A DNA stretch of 64,000 bases from an uncultured Clostridia bacterium (GTDB lineage: Bacteria; Bacillota; Clostridia; TANB77; CAG-508), in NCBI GenBank assembly GCA_947623285.1, contig CANQGP010000003.1:853-64852 (forward strand). The letters are read 5' to 3'. Both the position numbers and the translations under genes were made by a program. How positions within the stretch are numbered: the first letter of the stretch is position 1; each line of letters opens with the position of its first letter. Of the stretch, positions 7,921 through 19,169 are shown piece after piece. Under the pieces are notes generated by a model that did not search any database, was not told the origin of the DNA, and saw nothing but the letters and a program-made list of their open reading frames with translations.

Positions 7921-10383
7921 TTGGCAAGACCAATAGTAGTTGCTACCATAGGTTATATAATAGGAATAATAACAGGGCTATACTTAAAAAGTATAGTCCC
8001 TTTTTATGCTTTTATGGTAGTATTTTTAATAATAGTATATTTAATCACAAAATTTAAATCATATAATAGATATTTTAGATATATAAAACTTATATTAAAT
8101 TTTCAAACAATTATATTAATTCTAATAACTTCAATAATTGGATTCTTAAATATATCCCAAAAAGAAAAAGAATATCAAGAAACATATAAAAATATGGAGC
8201 AGCAAAATAATATAGAAGCAGAAGGAATAGTAGTGAGCAATAAAATAGAAAAGGATTTTAATAATATATATAGAATAAAAATATATAAAGTTAATGGAAA
8301 ACAAGTCAAATCAAAAAAATTTTATTGTTATATAAATAAAGATCAAAAAGATATTAAATACGGAAACAAAGTTAAATTGAAAGGAATATTTTTGCGACCT
8401 AAATCAGCAAGAAATGAAAACACATTCAACTACGAAAACTATTTGAAAATAAAAACAGTATATGGAGCAATTAAAGTAAAAAGTATTGAAACACAAGGAG
8501 TAAATACATATAGTCCAATTTTAAAATTTGCAAATGATATAAATTTAAAAATAAAAGAGAATGCAAAAAGTATAAAAGACGAGAAAATTAGAAGTGTATA
8601 TTTAGGAATAGTATTAGGAGATACTTCAACAATGGATGATGAAACGCAAATGAATTTTAGAGAAGCAGGGATGTCACATATATTAGCTGTATCAGGAATG
8701 CATATATCTTATTTAATAATTTGTAGTGTGGTAATTTTTAAATCGATATTTAATAAAAGAATAGCAAACATTATAACTAGTTTAATTATAATTGTGTATA
8801 TATTGATAACAGGCTTTTCATCATCAATAGCCAGAGCAGGAATTATGGGCATAATTTTATTATTTTCAAATGTATTTTATAGAAAAAACGATATGGCAAC
8901 AAGTATCAGTCTGTCATTGCTAATATTAATTATAGTAAATCCTTATTTAATTACAGATGTAGGTTTACAACTATCATATTCAGGGACGATTGGAATTATA
9001 TTATTTAGAAAACCTATATTGAAAATGATGAGAAAAATAAAAATAAAGGATAAAACTATAAGAGCAAGAATTCCTAGATTTATAATAAAGATTTCTGATA
9101 AAATAAAGGAAGTAATTGCAATAACATTAGCAGCACAAATAATGATTCTACCAATTTCAATTTATCAATTTAATCTTTTTAGCAGTTATTTTATCATTAC
9201 AAACTTTTTTGTAAGTTTAATTATAGGAATTGCTTATATAATCGCTATTATCTTTACGATAATGACATTTATTAATATAGGAATCTCTATAAAAATTAGT
9301 TTTTTCTTAAATCAAATTCTAAAATTAATCATATTTATTTCTGAAATTCCAAACAAATTAATCGGTTCAAAAATATATTTGCCATCACCCACTATTATAC
9401 AAATAGGAGGCTATTATATATTTATATTCATACTTTTCTATATAGCTAACATTAAAAGTAAAAGGAAAAGAAATATGTCAGAGCAAAGAGTATTAAATTT
9501 GATTGCTTTAGCTAAATTTAGATACAGAGAGATGAGCAAAAGAAAAAAGCGAATAATCTTTGCACTTATAATATCTATTTTTATGATAGCTATGATTATC
9601 CCAAAAGACTTAGAAATAAAATTTTTAGATGTAGATCAAGGGGACAGTACATTTATATCAACTCCTAGTAAAAAAACAATTTTAGTTGATGGAGGAGAAG
9701 ACGAAGAAACGGTTTTTCAATATCTCTTAAAAAACGGATATTTAGAGGTTGACTATATTATAATAAGCCATTTTGATTCAGACCATGTAAATGGCATATT
9801 TACAGTTTTAGAAAATCTAAAAGTAAACAATGTTATTATTGCAAAGCAAGTAGAAGACTCAGAAAATTATAAAAAATTTTTGGATATAATTAATCAAAAA
9901 AATATAAAAGTAATCACTGTGAAAAAGGGAGATAGAATAAAAATAGACAATGATTGTTATTTTGATATATTATGGCCCGATAAAAAACCGATAAGTGAAA
10001 ATGCAGCAAATAATAATGCTATAGTAGCTAAATTTGTTCATAAAGATTTTTCATGTTTGTTTACAGGAGACATAGAAGATATTGCCGAGAAAGAAATTAT
10101 TCAATTATATAATAAAGAATTGAATAGTACAATCTTAAAAGTTGCTCATCATGGTTCTAAAACATCGTCAACTCAAGAATTTTTAGAAAAAGTTAAACCA
10201 CAAATCGCTTTAATAGGAGTTGGTAAAGACAATAAATTTGGACATCCTAATGAAGAAGTTATTTCTAGATTGCAAAAATTCACAGACAAAATTTATAGAA
10301 CAGATTTGAAAGGCGAAATCTGTATAAATTTCACAAGATTGTCAATAATAAGAATAAAATATCTTATAGAAGACAAAAAATAA
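7921..10383 (+). CDS. comEC: DNA internalisation competence protein ComEC/Rec2
   Basis: 820 aa. N-terminal polytopic competence domain (MSHILAVSGMHISY) plus C-terminal metallo-beta-lactamase fold (ISHFDSDHVNG, KVAHHGSKTS). TTG start after AAGGAGG. Confidence 0.9.
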   Translation: MARPIVVATIGYIIGIITGLYLKSIVPFYAFMVVFLIIVYLITKFKSYNRYFRYIKLILNFQTIILILITSIIGFLNISQKEKEYQETYKNMEQQNNIEAEGIVVSNKIEKDFNNIYRIKIYKVNGKQVKSKKFYCYINKDQKDIKYGNKVKLKGIFLRPKSARNENTFNYENYLKIKTVYGAIKVKSIETQGVNTYSPILKFANDINLKIKENAKSIKDEKIRSVYLGIVLGDTSTMDDETQMNFREAGMSHILAVSGMHISYLIICSVVIFKSIFNKRIANIITSLIIIVYILITGFSSSIARAGIMGIILLFSNVFYRKNDMATSISLSLLILIIVNPYLITDVGLQLSYSGTIGIILFRKPILKMMRKIKIKDKTIRARIPRFIIKISDKIKEVIAITLAAQIMILPISIYQFNLFSSYFIITNFFVSLIIGIAYIIAIIFTIMTFINIGISIKISFFLNQILKLIIFISEIPNKLIGSKIYLPSPTIIQIGGYYIFIFILFYIANIKSKRKRNMSEQRVLNLIALAKFRYREMSKRKKRIIFALIISIFMIAMIIPKDLEIKFLDVDQGDSTFISTPSKKTILVDGGEDEETVFQYLLKNGYLEVDYIIISHFDSDHVNGIFTVLENLKVNNVIIAKQVEDSENYKKFLDIINQKNIKVITVKKGDRIKIDNDCYFDILWPDKKPISENAANNNAIVAKFVHKDFSCLFTGDIEDIAEKEIIQLYNKELNSTILKVAHHGSKTSSTQEFLEKVKPQIALIGVGKDNKFGHPNEEVISRLQKFTDKIYRTDLKGEICINFTRLSIIRIKYLIEDKK

Positions 10384-10464
10384 ATGGGTATAAAAATAGA
10401 CTAAGCATCTATAAGTAAAAAATAATAAACTAATCTATAAAAATTGGAAAGGAAAGAAAGCTAA

Positions 10465-10899
10465 ATGAATAAAGTAATAATTACAATGATTGCAATTATA
10501 GTAATATTATCAGCTATTATAATTGGAATGAATATATATAAAGAACAAGAATATGCAAAATCCAATAATCAAAGTAATGAAGAAATTATAGTCGCAGATA
10601 CTAATGAAGAAGAAATATATGATGATTGTACAGATGAAGCGGAAGTTTTAGAAAAAGAAGCAGAAATTTTGCAAGTAAACTCAAATTACGAAAAAGAAGA
10701 TGTAAATAAATTTGTGTTGCGTGATTATAATGGGATGATAGTAGTCTATAAAATAAATGAAGATGGGGAAGAAGAGGAATATAATGCAACAGACATTTCA
10801 GTAGAATATTTAACAAAAGAAGATCAGGAAAATTTAAAAAATGGAATAACAGTTACAGGAATAGAGAATATGAATCAATTGTTAGAAAATTTTGAATAA
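10465..10899 (+). CDS. membrane-anchored acidic protein, hypothetical (possible BofC-like C-terminal domain)
   Basis: 144 aa with an N-terminal TM helix. The tail LRDYNGMIVVYK...LKNGITVTGIENMNQLLENFE resembles BofC-C-type domains from memory only. Confidence 0.5.
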   Translation: MNKVIITMIAIIVILSAIIIGMNIYKEQEYAKSNNQSNEEIIVADTNEEEIYDDCTDEAEVLEKEAEILQVNSNYEKEDVNKFVLRDYNGMIVVYKINEDGEEEEYNATDISVEYLTKEDQENLKNGITVTGIENMNQLLENFE

Positions 10900-10905
10900 G
10901 AACTT

Positions 10906-11030
10906 AATAAGAACCTAACATACTAAGCAATCAAAAATTGCAGTGGAAACTCCGAAACCTTGTTGTCCATAACAATAAAATACAGCCTTAGAATATTGTT
11001 AAAATAAAAACATTCTAAGGCTGTAATAAT
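10906..11030 (+). repeat. structured intergenic element, copy B of 3
   Basis: AATAAGAACC..AGCAATCAAAAATTGC..GAAACCTTGTTGTccataACAATAAAATA, then a 13-bp terminator stem ACAGCCTTAGAAT/ATTCTAAGGCTGT. Sits between convergent genes. Confidence 0.6.
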
Positions 11031-11620
11031 CATTTATTTTTCTTAATTGAAACATTTTTTACATCTTTTTTCAAATCATCTTTATTTATAACCCCATATA
11101 TTGACAAATCATGTATATATAAAATAAGGGAAATAACCGTCATACATAAAGCTACGCAATAAAGTATTAAATCTAAATTATCCCAGAAAGGAGAAAAGCT
11201 AAAACTTTTTGTAAGTATAGAAACAGCAATTGCTAAGTAAAATAACACAGTTGCCAATTTTCCATACCATCTGCTGTAAACAACAACATCTTTACCATAA
11301 AGAAAAGATGCTCCGGCAACCATAGTACATTCTTTAATTGCAACTATTATGAGAATCCAAATAGGAATTATATGTAATATAACTAGTGCCGTTAAAATCG
11401 AAACAAGTGTTAACTTATCTGCTAGTGGGTCCATTAATTTACCAAAATTTGATATTAAATTATATTTTCTTGCTATACATCCATCAGCAACATCTGTAAA
11501 AGCTGAAAGGATTACAAAAATAAAAGCAAAAATATAATTTCCTGTAAAAAGTCCAATCAAAATTACTGGAATTAATATAAATCTAATAATTGTTAAAGTA
11601 TTTGGTACATATTTTAGCAT
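11030..11620 (-). CDS. pgsA: CDP-diacylglycerol--glycerol-3-phosphate 3-phosphatidyltransferase (CDP-alcohol phosphatidyltransferase family)
   Basis: DVADGCIARKYNLISNFGKLMDPLADK matches the D(x2)DG(x2)AR...G(x3)D(x3)D motif. Polytopic, 196 aa. Confidence 0.85.
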   Translation of the reverse strand: MLKYVPNTLTIIRFILIPVILIGLFTGNYIFAFIFVILSAFTDVADGCIARKYNLISNFGKLMDPLADKLTLVSILTALVILHIIPIWILIIVAIKECTMVAGASFLYGKDVVVYSRWYGKLATVLFYLAIAVSILTKSFSFSPFWDNLDLILYCVALCMTVISLILYIHDLSIYGVINKDDLKKDVKNVSIKKNK

Positions 11621-11631
11621 AAAAACCTCCG

Positions 11632-14001
11632 CTATTTTATTTTAAAACATAATTCATTTTGATTAAAATCAATAGAAATTGTTTGACCATCTATTATTTC
11701 ATTTCTTAATATCTTTTCAGAAATTTCGTCTTCGACATATCTTTGAATAGCTCTTCTTAAAGGTCTTGCTCCAAATTTCAAGTCAGTACCTTTAGAAAGA
11801 ATATATTTTTTAGCTTCATTCGTAATATCTAATTTCATATCTTTTTCAGATAAAGCTTTAACAGTATCTTGTAACATTAAATCAACAATTTCAAGTAACT
11901 GTTCCTCTGTTAAAGAATCAAAAATTACAATTTCATCAACCCTGTTTAAAAATTCAGGTCTAAAAGTTTCTTTTAAACTATCTTTTATTTTATCTTTATT
12001 TACAGTGCTTTTACCAAAGCCTATAGAATTAGTATTTAAATTGGAGCCAGCATTTGAAGTCATAATTATAATTGTATTAGAAAAACTAACTGTATTTCCT
12101 TGCGAATCTGTTAATTTTCCATCATCTAAAACTTGCAATAATATATTAAATACATCAGGGTGAGCTTTTTCTATCTCATCAAGAAGTATTATAGAATAAG
12201 GTTTTCTTTTTACCTTATCAGTTAGTTGCCCAGCATCATCATATCCAACATATCCAGGAGGGGCACCAATTAATTTAGAAGTTGAATGACTTTCCATATA
12301 TTCAGACATATCAATTCTTATTATTGAATCTTCAGAACCAAACATCTCGAAAGCCAAAGTTTTAGCTAATTCAGTTTTGCCAACACCTGTAGGACCTACA
12401 AAAATAAATGAAGGTGGACGTTTTGTTGATTGAAGACCAGCACGATTTCTTCTAATTGCTCTTGATACAGCACTAATAGCAGCATTTTGTCCGATTATCC
12501 TTTTATGCAAATTATTTTCTAGATTAAGTAACTTTTGAGTCTCAGCTTCTGTTATTTTTTTAACAGGTATTTTAGTCCAACTCTCGATAACATTTGCAAT
12601 ATCTTGAACTGTAAGACTTTTTAGTTTTAACTTTGAATTTAGTTTATCTATAGCCTCAGTTAATTGACATTCTTTCGTTTTTAAATCAGCAGCACGTTGG
12701 TAATCTTCAGTAGAATCAGCTGCAACAACTTCTTCTTTTTCTGCTTGAACAGCTTTTAATTTCTGTTTTAACATTTCTAACTCAAATAAATCTTTATTCT
12801 CTAAATTAATTTTAGAGCATGCTTCATCTAATATATCAATAGCCTTGTCTGGAAGAAAACGATCATGAATATATTTTTCAGACATAATAACAGTTTGCCT
12901 AATAACATCATTAGATATTTTTACTTTATGATATTCTTCATAATAACTTTTAATTCCAGATAAAATAGATATAGTATCTTCAATATTAGGTTCTTCTACA
13001 AGAACTTGTTGAAATCTTCTTTCTAAAGCAGAATCTTTTTCAATATACTTTCTATATTCTTTTAAAGTTGTAGTTCCAATTAATTGAATATCACCATTAG
13101 AAAGTGCAGGCTTTAAAATATTTGCAGCATTCATAGAGTGTTCACCATCACCAGCACCAATAATATTATGAATTTCATCTATTACAAGAATAATATTTCC
13201 ATAATTTATACATTCATCTATAATACCTTTCATCCTAGCCTCAAATTGACCTCTAAATTGAGTACCTGCTAGAACAGAAGTCATATCCAACAAATAAACC
13301 TCTTTGTTTAATAATTTTGCTGGTACATTTTGATTTGCAATACGAATAGCTAATCCTTGTGCAATAGCTGTTTTACCAACACCAGGTTCACCAATTAAAC
13401 AAGGATTATTTTTAGAACGTCTATTTAATATTTGAACAATGCGTCCAATTTCAGTTTCTCTACCAACAACATTATCCAATTGATTATTTTGTGCTTTTGC
13501 TGTTAAATTGGTTCCAAAAGTATCTAAGTACTTTTTCTTTTTATTTGTTTTTTTATTCTTTCTTTTTTCTACTTTAACTTTTTTGGTAGCTCCAGCAGAA
13601 CTAGTATTATTCGAATTGGAATTTCCTCCTCCAAAAAGGTTGGAAAAAATAGAACCAATTGGAATAGCTGCTCCTGATATTTGTGGACCATCAACATTAT
13701 CAATATCTGAGTTTTCATCAGACATTCCAAAGGTGATAGCTCCTTCCATATTTTGAATATCATCCATTGATAAATTTTCAGACAAATCTTTAAAAAGAGC
13801 TTCAAATTGTTTTGACATTCTATCCAAATTTTTATTATCTCTAGATAATATATCATATTGTTTAGAAAGAACCTCAGTAGGATTTATACCTTTTAATTTT
13901 GCACAGTCTCCACAATATCCTTCTAAAGTTGTTTTTCCATTTTTATCTATATTATTATAAAAAATAATTGCTGTGTTTTTCTTACATATTGAACATAACA
14001 T
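11632..14001 (-). CDS. clpE: ClpE-like Clp ATPase (two AAA+ modules, N-terminal zinc ribbon)
   Basis: MLCSICKK...CGDCA zinc ribbon. Walker A motifs GEPGVGKTA and GPTGVGKTE; UVR-like coiled coil between the modules. ATG at 14001 has GGAGAG 7 nt upstream; the track's start at 14016 is less likely. Confidence 0.85.
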
Positions 14002-14037
14002 ATATTGTCTCTCCATTTCTCAAAAATTCACATATAT

Positions 14038-14066
14038 ATAATACTTCAAAACTACGTAATAGTCAA
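14038..14066 (-). promoter_or_regulatory. putative promoter of the clpE-like gene
   Basis: Minus strand reads TTGACT-17 nt-TATTAT, ~37 nt upstream of the ATG. Confidence 0.45.
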
Positions 14067-14161
14067 GGTATATAAAGGTTAAAATAACAAAAAAGAAGTA
14101 TTGAAAAAAATTCCAATAGATGTTATAATTTAAATATAAAAAATAAAAAAGGTGAAATGAT

Positions 14162-15031
14162 ATGAATGTAACAATGCCAGAAAAAAATAAGTATACACTA
14201 AAAGAAAAAATGGTGTATGCAGTAGCAATCATAGTTTGCCTTCTAACCCTAATAAGTATAATATATGTTGAAATTTCAGCAGATACAAGTTTAGTCGATA
14301 TGTTAGATACATCTGAAGCAGAACAAACATCATTAGGGAACAAAACAGAAGAAGAATGTGAAGCACTAAAGACAGTAGTTAATAGTAAATTTAACAATAA
14401 TATTGAAAAAAATCTAGTTAGCTCTAATATAAAAAAGATAGACAAAAATAAAGACATTATATGCACAGCTCTAGATGCAAAAGAATCAAGTGCAGGAAAC
14501 TATGAAGTAAATGTTGTAATACCTATAATTAACATAGATAGTGAAATAATAAAAAACTACAATAGCGAAATAGAAAAAGTCTTCAAAAATAAATTAGAAG
14601 ACATATTAGAAACAAAAAATAAAAATATAGTTTATAGTGTAGAATATGTAGCAAGTATAAATAATGATATGTTATCACTTATGATACGTTCAAATTTAAA
14701 AGAAGGTTCAAGTGCTCAAAGGACAATAATTCAAACATATAATTATGATATAAAAAACAATAAAGAACTAACATTATCAGAAGTTTTAAAACGAAACAAT
14801 TTAAACGAAAATGATATAACCCAAAAAATAAAAGAAGAAATAAAAAAATCTCAACAAAAAGTTGAAGATCTTAGAGAATTAGGTTATTCAATATATAGTA
14901 GAAATCCAGAGGATAAGAAATATGAAATAAAAAATTCAAAACAATTCTATTGCACAAGCAATACAATATATATACTATATGCATATGGTAATGAAGACTA
15001 TACGAGTGAAGTTGATATTGTAGTAATTTAA
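14162..15031 (+). CDS. membrane-anchored hypothetical protein
   Basis: 289 aa with one N-terminal TM helix. TTGAAA-17-TATAAT promoter at ~14101..14129 and GGTGAAA RBS. No family confidently recognised. Confidence 0.6.
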   Translation: MNVTMPEKNKYTLKEKMVYAVAIIVCLLTLISIIYVEISADTSLVDMLDTSEAEQTSLGNKTEEECEALKTVVNSKFNNNIEKNLVSSNIKKIDKNKDIICTALDAKESSAGNYEVNVVIPIINIDSEIIKNYNSEIEKVFKNKLEDILETKNKNIVYSVEYVASINNDMLSLMIRSNLKEGSSAQRTIIQTYNYDIKNNKELTLSEVLKRNNLNENDITQKIKEEIKKSQQKVEDLRELGYSIYSRNPEDKKYEIKNSKQFYCTSNTIYILYAYGNEDYTSEVDIVVI

Positions 15032-15157
15032 AATATATAAATAAAAAAATATGGGCATCGAAGCTTTTTGGTTTCAATGTCCATATTTAGTTTCACAACT
15101 ATTGTATTTCATAAAGCAAAAACCGCTATAAGCTAATACTTATAGCGGTTCTTGTTT

Positions 15158-15178
15158 TCTTTGAAAATAAAAGGGGAT
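15158..15178 (+). repeat. attL core (TCTTTGAAAATAAAAGGGGAT)
   Basis: Identical 21-mer at 51654..51674. Both copies are preceded by a terminator hairpin. Confidence 0.8.
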
Positions 15179-15230
15179 ATTTGTTAAGTATAGCAAGAAT
15201 GGCTATAAATCAGTATTTGCACTCCTTTAA

Positions 15231-15251
15231 TGTTAACAACGTGTTAATAAC
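15231..15251 (+). promoter_or_regulatory. 21-bp repeat TGTTAACAACGTGTTAATAAC (candidate arm-type Int/Xis site), left copy
   Basis: Identical copy at 51518..51538. Contains the palindrome TTAACA-acg-TGTTAA. Lies 53 bp inside attL. Confidence 0.5.
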
Positions 15252-15259
15252 TAATTAAT

Positions 15260-16439
15260 TTAAGATACATTTAGATAAGTTATTTTACTATTCTTTTTAG
15301 ATCTATAATCTACCATTTCTATAGTTTCAATTAATTCTTCAATGCTTTTTTTAGTATAAACATCTAGTCCAGTATCTCCAGATTTATGGCCTAGAATTTT
15401 GTCAATACATACTTTGTTTGCTCCAACTCTATCTAATTCAGAACGTAATGTTTTACGTCCATCGTGCGACGTATGATAATTTAAGTTAAGTTTTTTTAAA
15501 AAATTTTTAAAATTATAATAAAAGGCACCATATTTCATTTTATTTCCGTTTTTTATCTACAAGTAAAAATTCATTGCTGCTGTTATAATAATTAGCTATA
15601 ATAGGTATTATTTCAGAATGAATAGGTATAATTCTATTTTTGCTTGCTTCGGTTTTAATTCCTCCAGTCAAGTATTTTTCTTTTAGATGTATATTTTTGT
15701 TTTTTATGAAAAATATTTCTTCGATTCTCATTCCAGTATATAAAGTCATTAAAATAATATCAGCAACCAATTTACCTTTACATTTCCATATTTTTTGAAT
15801 TTCTTTATATGTATAAGGAATATTTTTCTTTTTCTTGTTAGTATATAAATTAGAACTTAATTTAAGATTATGAGCATAACCTTTCACTATAATGTCACTT
15901 TCTTCTGCGTAAATATCTAATTTTTTAAATAAATCTATAAGTCCGGATATAGTGCTACTACCGCCATTTGTATTTAATATGATTTCCAAAAAATCATCTT
16001 TCTTCAATGATTTATATAATTTATCGTAAAGTTTTTCGCATTTATTATATGCAGTTTTCAAAATTAAAGCTGACGAACGACCTAGTTTCCCTTTTGCTTT
16101 TATGTGTTCTTTTTTTTCTAGTTCCATTTCTTCTTTAGTGGGAAAATATTTTTCATTATATTCTTCATACACTTGCCTAAAAGTATATTCAGATTTGTCA
16201 ATATCAATATTACCTTTTTGTATATTGTATTTTGCAAGTAATAAATCAGGAATATCTCTGTCTGGAAAATATTTTCGTCCTTTATCATCTGATAATATTT
16301 TAGGTGGCAATGCTTTTCCAGTTTCTTTATCGTATTCAATCGGTGCTCTTGCAAACCATGGATTTCTGCGGTTGCCATTTAGTTTTACAACGCAACCAGT
16401 TCCGTTTGCTCTTTTCATTAAAAAACCTCCAAATTTCAA
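15260..16439 (-). pseudogene. int: tyrosine recombinase (phage integrase) split by a +1 frameshift in an A6 run
   Basis: N-part (15540..16439) carries the catalytic-Arg region TLYTGMRIEE. C-part (15260..15538) carries HDGRKT...LGH...Y. Removing one A from the run at 15549..15554 gives a continuous LLVDKNGNKMKYGAFYYNF. Length is 3n+1. Confidence 0.85.
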
Positions 16440-16448
16440 ATATTACAC

Positions 16449-16477
16449 TTGAAAAATGAAGGGAAATACGATATAAT
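16449..16477 (+). promoter_or_regulatory. near-consensus promoter TTGAAA-17-TATAAT
   Basis: -35 at 16449..16454, -10 at 16472..16477. No ORF with an RBS downstream. Confidence 0.55.
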
Positions 16478-16483
16478 TATATT

Positions 16484-16556
16484 AATCACTTTTCAAGTGG
16501 TTGTTTTGGATAATGTGTGTTCTCTGCAAAAAGTTTACACATTATCCGCTTTTTTA
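16484..16556 (+). ncRNA. candidate ~75-nt sRNA antisense to the integrase upstream/leader region
   Basis: Runs from the promoter at 16449..16477 to an 11-bp hairpin GGATAATGTGT/ACACATTATCC (16508..16547) followed by GCTTTTTTATTT. Confidence 0.4.
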
Positions 16557-16570
16557 TTTACAAATATTTT

Positions 16571-16607
16571 TTAAAATTAAAAAGATAGCTACGTTCAAGC
16601 TATCTTT
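16571..16607 (-). terminator. intrinsic terminator/attenuator directly downstream of the minus-strand promoter
   Basis: Minus strand: AAAGATAGCT tgaacgt AGCTATCTTT followed by TTAATTTT. Confidence 0.5.
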
Positions 16608-16620
16608 AGTATTATGTTCG

Positions 16621-16649
16621 ATTATAATACACATTTAATATATTGTCAA
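16621..16649 (-). promoter_or_regulatory. perfect consensus promoter TTGACA-17-TATAAT pointing toward int
   Basis: Reverse complement of 16621..16650 reads gTTGACAatatattaaatgtgtatTATAAT. Confidence 0.6.
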
Positions 16650-16670
16650 CATAATATTTAAAATTTACTA

Positions 16671-16699
16671 TTGACAGGTTTTTGAATGATATATATAAT
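16671..16699 (+). promoter_or_regulatory. perfect consensus promoter TTGACA-17-TATAAT for the small membrane-peptide mRNA
   Basis: -35 at 16671..16676, -10 at 16694..16699. Back-to-back with the minus-strand promoter. Confidence 0.65.
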
Positions 16700-16842
16700 A
16701 TTAGAAATGTTGTTTACTTCCTTCAAGGTTGGATGCACAGATTAGTAGTTGATTGCTACATCTTGCACTTCAACTATTAGTCCGTGCATCTAACTTTCGC
16801 AAGATGGTTGATGTACAATACGAAAGAAGGGGGGTTATTCCA

Positions 16843-16998
16843 ATGGATACTTTCCTAGGAATAGGATTTGTTGTACTTAGTGTAGCGGTACTAATAGGAA
16901 TATGCGGTATTGTAGGATACGGTATTCACATACATAAAAAAGATGTTGACATCAGTCCCGCACAGACTAACGTCAACAAACTAAACAACGATGAGTAA
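16843..16998 (+). CDS. 51-aa single-TM peptide, candidate type I toxin
   Basis: MDTFLGIGFVVLSVAVLIGICGIVGYGIHIHKKDVDISPAQTNVNKLNNDE. SD GAAGGGGGG lies 8 nt upstream. Long structured leader and a convergent antisense promoter. Confidence 0.6.
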   Translation: MDTFLGIGFVVLSVAVLIGICGIVGYGIHIHKKDVDISPAQTNVNKLNNDE

Positions 16999-17026
16999 GG
17001 CGAAAGCCTTGCTCTTTTTTATATCT
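16933..17026 (-). ncRNA. candidate ~90-nt antisense RNA (antitoxin-like) overlapping the 3' end of the peptide ORF
   Basis: Runs from the promoter at 17033..17061 to a 13-bp hairpin (16945..16977) plus ATCTTTTTTATG. Its two non-Watson-Crick pairs are G.U only in the minus-strand transcript. Confidence 0.45.
16993..17020 (+). terminator. terminator of the small-peptide mRNA
   Basis: GAGTAAGGC-GAAA-GCCTTGCTC: 9 bp with one G.U pair and a GAAA tetraloop, followed by T6. Confidence 0.7.
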
Positions 17027-17032
17027 ATTAAA

Positions 17033-17061
17033 ATTATAACATATTTATTACAATTTTTCAA
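17033..17061 (-). promoter_or_regulatory. near-consensus promoter TTGAAA-17-TATAAT (minus strand)
   Basis: -35 is the reverse complement of 17056..17061; -10 is the reverse complement of 17033..17038. Confidence 0.55.
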
Positions 17062-17068
17062 TAGTTTT

Positions 17069-17314
17069 TCAAACATTCCAACTATGTCCGCAATTTTGAC
17101 ATACTGCTACAGTCTTATTGTTATATGAAGTTTTTTCATTTCCTTTTGACTTTTTCCAAACTAAATTAGACATTCCTAAAGTACACAAAGCAGTCAATCC
17201 TCTAGCAGTATTATTTAGATGTCCACCTATGCCATTCCCATGTTTTTTTGTTTTTCCTCCTGATTGAACTATTTGAGTATTAACATCTGTACTATTACAT
17301 TTAGGGCATACCAT
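17069..17314 (-). CDS. split zinc-ribbon protein (CPKC...CQNCGH), hypothetical lysogeny-module cargo
   Basis: Start MVCPKCNS has AGGAG 8 nt upstream; the track's upstream ATG at 17332 overlaps the RBS. CxxC pairs at both ends. Confidence 0.6.
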   Translation of the reverse strand: MVCPKCNSTDVNTQIVQSGGKTKKHGNGIGGHLNNTARGLTALCTLGMSNLVWKKSKGNEKTSYNNKTVAVCQNCGHSWNV

Positions 17315-17348
17315 TTCTATCACTCCTTCCATTGTTATATTGAAATTA

Positions 17349-17828
17349 TTAACTCAATTTATTTAATTTTTTATAAAGTCTAGCTGCACGTCCAGGCATT
17401 TGTCCTGTTGTACCGTCTTTAATAAAGCCAATATCTATAGCTTTTTGACAAATTTCTAGTGCTTTGTCATACTCTTTTCTTTTTTCATAGATAATTGCCA
17501 ACCTTTTAAAACTAGGGTACGTAGGCACTTGAGTTTCAATAGGTTCTTTATAATATTCTGCACGTTCTTTACAATAATTGTAAAATTCTCGAGCTATACC
17601 AATATCAGTTAAACAGTCTTTTATAACTCCGTCCATCTGTGGACTAAATTCATCTCCCATATTTATTACTACCCTATAGTCCATTTCGATTTTTTCTAAA
17701 AGTTTATAATGTAATCGTACGACTTTATTGTACTTTTTTTCTATTTCATCTAGTTTTGTAGTAGGGATATCATCAAAAAAAGAACTGTTTGTTTTTGACT
17801 TGCCAAATATACTTTTAAAAAATCCCAT
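17349..17828 (-). CDS. hypothetical protein with TPR-like C-terminal helices, lysogeny-module cargo
   Basis: 159 aa. FKRLAIIYEKRKEYDKALEICQKAIDIGF resembles a TPR hairpin. Co-oriented with the repressor. Confidence 0.6.
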   Translation of the reverse strand: MGFFKSIFGKSKTNSSFFDDIPTTKLDEIEKKYNKVVRLHYKLLEKIEMDYRVVINMGDEFSPQMDGVIKDCLTDIGIAREFYNYCKERAEYYKEPIETQVPTYPSFKRLAIIYEKRKEYDKALEICQKAIDIGFIKDGTTGQMPGRAARLYKKLNKLS

Positions 17829-17867
17829 ATTAGTACTCCTTATTAAAATCTATATATACTATATTTC

Positions 17868-18230
17868 CTATGCGTTTTGTGATTTGTCCCTTTTTTGCGT
17901 ATATTCAGGTATTTTAGTTAAATCTTCAACATTGTTAATTGCTTTTTCTTTTCCTAAGTTATTAAGTTGGTTATAATATGAAAGTATTTCAGAATTATTT
18001 GAAGCTTTTTGTAATTCTTTTTCAGCATTACGAATATTAGACTTTCCTAACAAGTAGTCTGTTGACACTTCAAAAAAATTAGCAAATCTCAAAGTTAATT
18101 CGTTGTTTGGTTCTCTTGAACCTCTTTCGTACATACCTATTGCACTTGCAGAAACAGATAGTCTATTTGCCAATTCTTCTTGTTTTAAATTCAATTCTTC
18201 TCTTAATGATTTTAGTCTATTACCTAACAT
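17868..18230 (-). CDS. XRE-family (cI-like) prophage repressor
   Basis: HTH_3 motif LKQEELANRLSVSASAIGMYERGSREP. Divergent from a cro-like gene across an operator-rich region. Confidence 0.85.
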   Translation of the reverse strand: MLGNRLKSLREELNLKQEELANRLSVSASAIGMYERGSREPNNELTLRFANFFEVSTDYLLGKSNIRNAEKELQKASNNSEILSYYNQLNNLGKEKAINNVEDLTKIPEYTQKRDKSQNA

Positions 18231-18258
18231 ATAAACCCCCTTAATTAAGCAGAATTAT

Positions 18259-18376
18259 AACACACAAAAAGTGAAAAGTAAACATAAAACACAGAACGTG
18301 GTAAAAAATAAAAAATTTTTTAAAAAAAGTATTGACAAAACACAAAATGTGTTATAATATTAAAACACAAAATGTG
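18259..18376. promoter_or_regulatory. immunity-region operators and early promoter
   Basis: AACAC(A/G)nAAnGTG sites at 18259..18273, 18287..18300, 18337..18352 and 18362..18376. The third lies between TTGACA (18332) and TATAAT (18353). Confidence 0.6.
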
Positions 18377-18398
18377 AGAAGAAAGGAGAAAAGCAAAA

Positions 18399-18590
18399 GT
18401 GGAAGAATTGAAAGAATTTAGAATGTCATTAAAATTAACACTTCAAGAATTTGCTGAAAGTATTGATGTATCAAAGTCTTTATATGAAAAAGTTGAAAAT
18501 GGAGCCAGAAAGCCAAGTAGAGAATTTACAACAAAATTAAAGCAAAAGTATCCTGAATTTGATGTCAATATTTTTTTTAGCAAACAATAA
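18399..18590 (+). CDS. Cro/XRE-like HTH regulator
   Basis: 63 aa. LTLQEFAESIDVSKSLYEKVENGARKP HTH. GTG start after AAAGGAG. Confidence 0.75.
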   Translation: MEELKEFRMSLKLTLQEFAESIDVSKSLYEKVENGARKPSREFTTKLKQKYPEFDVNIFFSKQ

Positions 18591-18629
18591 CACGAAACGT
18601 GTTATAAACAAACGAAAGGAGATGAGAAT

Positions 18630-18806
18630 ATGGAAAATCTTAAAGAACTTGAAGAAATAGCAAGACAGTTAAGAAACAAAAAAGCTAGACAATGGCGAGC
18701 TAACAACAAAGACAAAGTAAGGGAAACTAACAAAAGATACTGGTTAAAAAAAGCAAAAGAAGAATTAGAAAGAAGAAAAAAATGCAGAGAACACACGAAA
18801 ATCTAA
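18630..18806 (+). CDS. small basic phage protein (58 aa), hypothetical
   Basis: MENLKELEEIARQLRNKKARQWRANNKDK...; AAAGGAG RBS. Below the ORF-track length cutoff. Confidence 0.5.
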   Translation: MENLKELEEIARQLRNKKARQWRANNKDKVRETNKRYWLKKAKEELERRKKCREHTKI

Positions 18807-18826
18807 AGTGAAAGGAAGTTGAAAAA

Positions 18827-19021
18827 ATGGCACATAAATTAACAATATCTGTAGAAGATGCAGCAAAAATAATTGAAAAAAATCCTCAATATATACGTTA
18901 TGGCTTGAGGCAAAATAGATTACCTTTTGGGAGTGCAGTACAAAAACCAAATGGAAGGTGGAGTTACAACATTATAAGAAGTAAGTTTTTAGAATATGCA
19001 GGATTAGAGGAAGGAGGATAA
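18827..19021 (+). CDS. small DNA-binding protein (excisionase/HTH_17-like)
   Basis: 64 aa. ISVEDAAKIIEKNPQYIRYGLRQNRLPFG resembles Xis/MerR-type winged HTH. Sits in early-operon position. Confidence 0.45.
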   Translation: MAHKLTISVEDAAKIIEKNPQYIRYGLRQNRLPFGSAVQKPNGRWSYNIIRSKFLEYAGLEEGG

Positions 19022-19169
19022 ACAAATGAAAAGAAAAATCGATTCAAATAAAGTATGGGCATTTATAGGAAAAATATCAGTAGTAGTATTAATGCAAATA
19101 GCATTTGCACAGTTAAGTTTATTAATTTTAAATAACTGTATAACAGTTTATAAGTAGGAGGGAAAAGAA

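Follow-up and report, generated by a model that had tools for sequence, protein, structure and literature searches.

A 0.4-kb prophage cassette of an uncultured Clostridia bacterium with the layout of a 3'-overlapping type I toxin-antitoxin system

Within a 64,000-nucleotide (nt) stretch of DNA from an uncultured Clostridia bacterium (contig CANQGP010000003.1, positions 853 to 64,852, here called the window; G+C content about 28%), a compact 0.4-kb unit at 16643..17078, lying in a clostridial prophage, carries an open reading frame (ORF) for a 51-amino-acid (aa) single-pass membrane peptide together with the signals for a convergent antisense RNA, and this cassette probably functions as a 3'-overlapping type I toxin-antitoxin (TA) system. 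The kind is known but the family is undescribed, and this locus is best taken as its first recognised member. Its structural reading is supported by homology limited to the module, invariant promoter hexamers with variable spacers, covariation of the terminator, sequestration of the Shine-Dalgarno sequence (SD) and purifying selection on the ORF. An earlier reading by a model, made without database searches and called here the sequence-only reading, had likened the locus to txpA/RatA and bsrG/SR4, with a promoter and a terminator for each of two RNAs overlapping at their 3' ends, and the comparative evidence supports that layout. The elements are listed below, with transcription starts placed about 7 nt past each -10 box.

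16643..16670, plus strand: left edge of the conserved cassette, an AT-rich stretch 5' of the sense -35 box (BLAST homology starts at 16643-16652 and the flanks are unrelated)
16671..16699, plus strand: sense promoter, for the peptide mRNA, TTGACA-17-TATAAT (12/12 match)
16706..17021, plus strand: predicted peptide mRNA of about 316 nt with a 137-nt 5' untranslated region (UTR), placed from the promoter and terminator positions
16709..16716 (mRNA nt 4-11), plus strand: 5' arm of the 5'-3' long-distance helix, GUUGUUUA, from the minimum free energy (MFE) fold, with its partner at 16982..16989
16717..16724 (mRNA nt 12-19), plus strand: anti-SD CUUCCUUC, which pairs with the SD in the alignment and in the folds
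16725..16797, plus strand: long leader hairpin, its RNAalifold pairs kept in nine sequences
16796..16806, plus strand: segment UUCGCAAGAUG, mostly without pairing, 3' of the leader hairpin and 5' of the SD, conserved family-wide
16826..16834, plus strand: SD GAAGGGGGG, 8 nt 5' of the ATG, read from the sequence and masked by the anti-SD in the folds
16843..16998, plus strand: ORF for the 51-aa peptide with a single transmembrane (TM) helix, MDTFLGIGFVVLSVAVLIGICGIVGYGIHIHKKDVDISPAQTNVNKLNNDE (MDTFLGIGF...), judged by polymorphism, hydropathy and AlphaFold
16982..16989, plus strand: 3' arm of the long-distance helix, UAAACAAC, inside the antisense-covered region
16993..17020, plus strand: sense intrinsic terminator, a 9-bp stem (16993..17014) with a GAAA tetraloop, then U6
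17061..17033, minus strand: antisense promoter TTGAAA-17-TATAAT (11/12) with an extended TG, forming the right edge of the cassette
17026..16936, minus strand: predicted antisense RNA of about 90 nt with two hairpins, its ends placed from promoter and terminator
16978..16936, minus strand: antisense terminator inside the ORF, a 14-15-bp hairpin (16978..16944) followed by UCUUUUUU

Both promoters, the GAAA-tetraloop terminator and the antisense hairpin with its U-tract had been pointed out in the sequence-only reading and were found to be present. The stop codon of the ORF falls within the 5' arm of the sense terminator, and the antisense promoter is convergent to the mRNA, 40 nt beyond its 3' end. 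An overlap of about 85 nt had been claimed for the two RNAs; the predicted overlap is about 86 nt (16936..17021), fully complementary, and takes in codons ~32-51 (the last third of the ORF) along with the terminator of the mRNA and the downstream arm of the closure helix, which is the arrangement of the Gram-positive 3'-overlap class as defined in PMC8594479. The predicted 316-nt mRNA and the hydrophobic 51-aa peptide also fall within the sizes given there for type I toxins in general (mRNAs of 150-400 nt, peptides of 20-60 aa). The antisense RNA has an MFE of -32.3 kcal/mol (z = -5.2).

The cassette is present as a single copy in the window by BLAST, but recurs in at least 24 distinct copies between which the neighbouring genes vary. 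When window positions 15100..18300 were compared by BLAST, homology to all fetched loci was confined to 16643..17078, and in an alignment of ten close copies identity was about 90% between the two outward-facing -35 boxes and collapsed just outside them. In the window the cassette sits at the left end of a prophage of about 38 kb, its integrase/repressor side, with a minus-strand tyrosine integrase (15260..16439) on one flank and on the other a leftward operon (17069..18230) encoding a Zn-ribbon protein, a tetratricopeptide repeat (TPR) protein and a cI-like helix-turn-helix repressor. Two copies are present in one rabbit-gut Clostridia metagenome-assembled genome (MAG), the first between chromosomal genes and the second beside zeta-toxin and type IV secretion system (T4SS) pilin genes. 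The commonest variant, P0069 (about 52% identical; 207 contigs listed), follows directly on the holin and endolysin genes at the end of prophages that occupy at least three different host sites, and is also found near the ends of 30-40-kb IMG/VR viral contigs. The family is thus not limited to prophages and, because homology is restricted to the cassette while the flanking contexts differ, we regard it as a discrete portable unit.

Within this unit the sense -35 and -10 hexamers were invariant in the close copies having promoter sequence while the spacer between them varied, and in the majority of the distant copies the promoter scored no less than 10.5/12, again with different spacers. The sense terminator was found at or after the stop codon in 23/24 copies, formed by at least five different hairpin sequences, and a minus-strand promoter matching at 10/12 positions or more stood at the equivalent position in 17 of the 19 copies whose sequence runs far enough downstream. 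The ORF, both promoters and both terminators were retained in copies down to about 40% peptide identity. The sequence-only reading had made its case depend on homologous copies keeping the ORF and the promoters, and both were kept across the 24 copies, apart from the frameshifted ORFs described below. It is this conservation across 24 distinct homologous copies, and not a motif scan, that shows the elements to be non-random; in a scan of 6 kb, 38 promoter-like sites were found against 39 expected, which is not significant, while terminator-like sites were enriched (7 against 1.4 expected).

The antisense terminator shows the clearest strand preference. A strict hairpin with a T-run in the 3' third of the ORF was found on the minus strand in 21/24 copies but on the plus strand in only 1/24, and the remaining 3/24 copies have the antisense hairpin with a single U.U mismatch. 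It had been noted from the window that the imperfect pairs of this hairpin are G.U only in the minus-strand RNA and A.C in the plus strand, and this was confirmed and extends to the close copies and to the family. In eight close sequences 94.6% of cells were paired on the minus strand compared to 80.4% on the plus, each one-sided change in the inner 13 pairs being G.U in the minus-strand RNA and A.C in its plus-strand counterpart, and in 18 family sequences, for which the hairpin arms were aligned by hand, the values were 90.9% and 78.6%, with double-sided compensation at 7 pair positions (e.g. C-G to U-A and U-A to C-G). The pairing observed in these 18 sequences was reached by 0/2000 shuffles of the arms, a figure which overstates significance because the sequences are related and which should not be read as a probability; the asymmetry between strands and the compensations hold independently of it. 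These comparisons indicate that the antisense terminator is selected as a minus-strand RNA and, at the level of conserved signals (promoter, terminator and strand-specific covariation), they point to a cis-antisense RNA as expected of a type I antitoxin.

The 3' arm of this hairpin and its U-tract are the complement of the codons for K-(E)-K-V-D-I-S (the U-tract, 16941..16936, being that of the KK codons), and the 5' arm is the complement of T-N-V-N. Because of this complementarity, the basic patch that follows the membrane helix of the peptide and the terminator of the putative antitoxin are the same nucleotides. RNAalifold also predicted a long-range helix within the ORF, 16864..16881 with 16966..16983, in which the codons for G-F-V-V-L-S pair with those for T-N-V-N-K and two pairs show compensatory changes; where this helix forms, the mRNA complement of the 5' arm of the antisense terminator would be occupied.

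The mRNA itself appears, from its predicted folds, to be built for translational closure by two helices. The full-length window mRNA has an MFE of -109.5 kcal/mol (z = -7.7 against shuffles), and its first ~20 nt form two adjacent helices, the 5'-3' closure, in which GUUGUUUA (16709..16716) pairs with UAAACAAC (16982..16989) just 5' of the terminator, and then the anti-SD:SD helix. Both closures were found in 23/23 independent MFE folds of the copies with complete 5' ends, anchored by the alignment, and shuffling of the first 22 nt lowered them to means of 0-5 paired nt. The pairing of the 5' leader sequence CTTCCTTC with the SD had been proposed in the sequence-only reading; it was confirmed in these 23/23 copies and kept in all 72 cells of a nine-sequence alignment analysed with RNAalifold, and it covaries across the family (CUUCCUUC:GAAGGGGG, CUCUCUUU:GAAGGGAG, CUCCUUC:GAAGGAG, CCCCUUU:AAAGGGG and ACCCUUUUCU:AGAAAGGGGU). 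The 5'-3' helix, which is an addition to that reading, also covaries (GUUGUUUA:UAAACAAC, AGGUUAUUU:AAAUAAUCU, GUUGAUUA:UAAUCAAC and GAAUUAUUU:AAAUAAUUC). Pairing of the SD with an anti-SD and 5'-3' long-distance interactions are key structural determinants of type I toxin mRNAs (PMC8594479), and both are thus predicted here, with the support of covariation, as SD-sequestering cis elements.

Between the two arms of this closure lies the long leader hairpin which had also been seen beforehand, and for which a check of covariation had been proposed. All of its predicted pairs were kept in the nine sequences, with compensatory changes at two pairs, its G.U pairs occurred on the plus strand only, and its apical part was variable or deleted. 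The sequence-only reading had further proposed that the loop of this hairpin, CATCTTGC, pairs with GCAAGATG downstream. The window has this complementarity, but three close copies (L009, L011 and L015) have lost the loop and the distant branch lacks it, the GCAAGA segment being conserved regardless, and this pairing was therefore rejected as a conserved interaction. Within 16796..16806 the sequence TTCGCAAGA is kept in nearly all 24 copies, the distant branch included. Few parts of the family are as conserved as the segment UUCGCAAGA(U), in the interval between leader hairpin and SD, which is predicted to be mostly unpaired; no pairing partner was found for it, and it could be a processing or standby site.

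The ORF is under purifying selection and appears to be translated, as the ratio of nonsynonymous to synonymous polymorphism (pN/pS) was 0.25 across ten copies, variation was greatest at third codon positions (10/4/17 variable sites by codon position) and a strong SD lies 8 nt from the ATG. The single TM helix claimed for the peptide was borne out, with Kyte-Doolittle means of up to 2.7 over residues 6-25 and an AlphaFold model, made with the family alignment, of one helix (residues 2-36) followed by a disordered tail (mean predicted local distance difference test, pLDDT, 72). Peptides of the family have 48-57 aa, with one TM helix, a basic patch directly after it and a polar tail, all of them traits of type I toxins, and this organisation (a short N-terminus, a hydrophobic stretch of ~24 residues, G-Y, basic patch and polar tail) persists in relatives with as little as about 35% identity.

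Among 5.8 billion proteins, a word-indexed search gave nine close, unnamed relatives, and an exhaustive profile search gave 26 representatives at 50% identity. A second profile search gave 104 clusters at 90% identity, all unnamed except for one JGI entry mis-annotated as an OAD gamma subunit. In pattern scans alignment A6 was too diverse, while alignment A7, of the P0069 branch, gave matches; with the narrow alignment A1, no match was obtained in IMG/VR or the JGI metagenomes. The sequence-only reading could name no toxin family for the peptide, in agreement with our scans of Pfam, NCBIfam, PHROGs and PADLOC and with hhalign. The window peptide had no significant match in these four collections (matches in Pfam were sub-threshold only) and none at E ≤ 1 to a toxin family of Pfam or NCBIfam, including TxpA, BsrG, Fst, Hok and the other families modelled there; we dismissed as noise the matches to phrog_7570 (E 0.003, a family of unknown function) and KwaA (E 0.014). 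Rfam, searched over 14000..20000 at E ≤ 1, gave no antitoxin RNA family and only sub-threshold chance matches (ar9 and two miRNAs), and annotated phage and plasmid records gave nothing relevant when searched by blastn and tblastn with the module and both branches of the peptide.

In two of the contigs, which come from different samples, an extra C shifts the frame of the ORF by +1 at one shared position of the alignment (L037, 1220..1379; L029, 3001..3157, which is the same contig as L038). These copies keep the promoters, leader, terminators and antisense hairpin, and look like toxin-dead copies in which the antitoxin side is retained, as expected of decaying toxin genes. In two others (P0004 and P0009, from L012 and L015) the ENA gene calls read through a TGA stop to give 63- and 81-aa products, whereas with translation table 11 the ORFs have 52 and 48 aa; the extended database entries are annotation artefacts, apparently arising from a TGA=Trp code.

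Several points weigh against the type I TA reading. The C-terminal tail is polar but roughly neutral (3 K compared to 4 D/E), unlike the Lys-rich tails of C. difficile toxins. MFE folds of RNAs of ~300 nt are error-prone, and the relatedness of the sequences inflates the shuffle controls. Conservation of K-x-K-V-D-I-S could reflect constraint on the RNA, on the peptide or on both, and so is not independent proof of peptide function, and in the window the in-ORF hairpin may have a second role, in stopping read-through from the repressor operon. The two transcripts are predicted, as are their ends and relative stabilities, while toxicity of the peptide, its neutralisation by the antitoxin and a role in prophage maintenance or exclusion are suggested, for the whole family, by analogy.

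The explanation most in need of weighing against a toxin is that the peptide is an antisense-regulated small membrane protein, a "moron" of prophages and mobile elements which is not addictive, with the antisense RNA as its regulator; possible roles would be superinfection exclusion, abortive infection or modulation of membrane processes or lysis timing. The accessory sites which the cassette occupies at prophage ends (the integrase side in the window, beside holin and endolysin genes in the P0069 branch) would suit such a gene, as would a tail that is not Lys-rich and the lack of a toxin-family match. We nevertheless consider it unlikely, as a double translation lock with an antisense RNA is typical of dangerous products (PMC8594479), copies are found outside prophages in chromosomal intergenic DNA, and the frameshifted ORFs with intact RNA elements fit the decay of a toxin. 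Where it adjoins lysis genes the cassette is convergent to them, with its own signals, rather than in the lysis cassette, and a role as part of a phage lysis cassette was rejected on this opposite orientation, these signals and the copies away from lysis genes.

It is very unlikely that the plus transcript is mainly a structured non-coding RNA, with a functional leader and an incidental or untranslated ORF. The leader is indeed more conserved than the ORF in close copies, the transcript is strongly structured (z = -7.7) and copies with frameshifted ORFs persist, but a pN/pS of 0.25 with third-position bias, an ORF length, TM helix and tail kept to ~35-40% identity over 104 clusters, and a strong, conserved SD at optimal spacing which is specifically masked all argue for a translated product, and there was no Rfam match. 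Least probable of all, with hardly any weight in our view, is that the peptide is an OAD_gamma-like membrane anchor or an ordinary DUF3951 membrane protein whose flanking motifs are fortuitous, since the promoter and terminator elements are conserved with covariation. Weak OAD_gamma (PF04277) matches were obtained for 17/20 members of the P0069 branch, in keeping with the one JGI name, but all scored below the gathering threshold of 27 bits (best 23.3 bits), and no decarboxylase genes were adjacent in any context seen, which effectively refutes that identity. Four distant relatives match DUF3951 (PF13131), of which P0048 alone passes the gathering threshold (27.9 against 26.3 bits) with the three others just below it, while the window peptide had no DUF3951 match at E ≤ 1; no mention of DUF3951 was found in the literature, and such a link would not contradict the type I TA reading.

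Among known systems the closest in layout are the C. difficile pairs CD2907.1/CD0956.2-RCd9/10, CD2517.1-RCd8 and CD0977.1-RCd11 (PMC5961336, PMC7699646, PMC6563280), which are likewise from Clostridia and often prophage-borne, with a peptide of ~50 aa with an N-terminal TM helix, a structured ~300-nt mRNA with a long 5' UTR and a sequestered ribosome binding site, a convergent antisense RNA over the 3' part of the ORF and sigma-A-type promoters for both RNAs. Their mRNAs of ~300 nt have 83-88-nt UTRs and their antitoxins of 134-140 nt overlap them by 131-134 nt (PMC5961336), whereas here the UTR is 137 nt and the overlap ~86 nt; the present cassette also has no adjacent CRISPR array or cyclic di-GMP riboswitch, and its family is known from sequence alone. 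A toxin of the C. difficile type is found in phage phiCD27 (orf41, 47 aa, with a Lys-rich tail). Comparison of the family profile with phiCD27 orf41 by hhalign gave a probability of 0.5%, with a working positive control, and tblastn of the family peptides found no C. difficile phage, while the orf41 control found 38 C. difficile phage records. The cassette family thus appears, by these profile and sequence searches, to be unrelated to the C. difficile CD0956.2/CD0977.1 toxin family despite the parallel layout. To our knowledge, the C. difficile families are the only type I TA systems characterised in Clostridia.

The B. subtilis systems bsrG/SR4, txpA/RatA and yonT/SR6, from the SPbeta and skin elements, are also convergent and prophage-borne, with an antisense RNA covering the 3' end of the ORF and the terminator, and with the SD in double-stranded RNA (PMC6563280). 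Their antitoxins promote mRNA decay through an RNase III-sensitive duplex, which is proposed by analogy here. The present cassette differs in having no Pfam, NCBIfam or Rfam match to those families, and in having its anti-SD at the extreme 5' end, a contiguous 5'-3' helix and a terminator in conserved ORF codons. The 5'-3' closure with SD sequestration resembles hok/sok of plasmid R1 and aapA1/IsoA1 of H. pylori, whose mRNAs are inert until processed (PMC8594479), but these are Gram-negative systems, with no sequence similarity to the cassette, and their antisense RNAs act at the 5' or translation-initiation region rather than, as here, at the 3' end; processing is for the present cassette a proposal.

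On this basis the type I TA system would work as follows. A constitutive-looking sigma-A promoter would give the ~316-nt mRNA for the 51-aa membrane peptide, with the antisense RNA pairing with the 3' end of the mRNA, probably from complementary hairpin loops, to form a duplex of ~86 bp that would be cut by RNase III or other RNases. The mRNA, now without its protective terminator, would be degraded and peptide synthesis kept off. Peptide would be made only from mRNA which escapes the antisense RNA and in which the SD is opened, most plausibly by 5' processing that removes the anti-SD, for which the UUCGCAAGA segment is a candidate site. Activating 5' processing of this sort is known for tisB, dinQ, zorO and hok, the analogy used here. 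The peptide would then enter the membrane and be harmful on accumulation, making the cassette an addiction, stabilisation or stress module of the element that carries it.

Lysogenic read-through may add to antisense coverage in the window, as the repressor operon (minus strand) ends at 17069 with no terminator before the cassette; such transcripts may stop at the in-ORF terminator. On the other flank the integrase is split into ORFs of 299 and 92 aa in different frames near an A-run (15538..15545), the second holding the catalytic C-terminal part, and is either a pseudogene, which would lock the prophage in place, or a homopolymer sequencing error. Between the start of the integrase and the cassette are two extra promoters, neither of which was conserved in any of the fetched loci. 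One, on the plus strand (TTGAAA-17-TATAAT, 16449..16477), is followed by a predicted two-hairpin RNA of ~75 nt with a 13-bp stem and U6 (z = -5.2; region 16449..16562), and the other, on the minus strand, is perfect (TTGACA-17-TATAAT, 16649..16621) and is followed by a 10-bp hairpin and U-run (16607..16581). If the minus-strand transcript reads through this hairpin it would be an integrase leader, and the ~75-nt RNA would then be cis-antisense to it.

In the MAG GCA_947627295.1 (L005; 4513..5386 and 9123..12139) one copy of the cassette lies ~600 bp away from a gene for a zeta toxin, which is preceded by a small ORF (a type II TA arrangement), and near HEPN/nucleotidyltransferase and T4SS pilin/TrbC genes; the region resembles an island for defence or addiction carried by a conjugative element. 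P0069-type cassettes at the prophage end always come with a conserved ORF of 39-40 aa (L016-L023, 3614..3736, minus strand), which lies ~260 bp upstream in the opposite orientation and has a terminator-like hairpin of its own (L016, 3632..3609).

Taking the family as a whole, we somewhat favour the wider view that over 100 clusters, from prophages and other mobile DNA of uncultured gut Clostridia, combine a hok-like closure, a 5' anti-SD lock and a 3'-overlapping antitoxin whose terminator lies in the most conserved codons of the toxin (the U-tract in those of the KK/KEK membrane anchor, the stem in V-D-I-S...T-N-V-N), and that the window cassette is the founding example of an undescribed type I TA family. 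Since the antitoxin terminator would be written into those codons, peptide and antitoxin would be forced to co-evolve. The double lock and the dual-coded terminator, in which an RNA terminator shares nucleotides with protein codons, are neat and useful to the specialist rather than surprising, and the covariation data make an unusually clean natural case of a double-locked mRNA. Annotation misses many type I TA loci, since their peptides are tiny and their antitoxins are not proteins but RNAs, and the complete definition of the cassette (boundaries, two promoters, two terminators and mRNA locks) is usable to annotate more than 100 unnamed small ORFs of gut metagenomes and prophages. If the peptide is toxic, the family would be a candidate for stabilising prophages and conjugative elements of gut Clostridia, and it could also serve as a counter-selection tool, as C. 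difficile toxins do.

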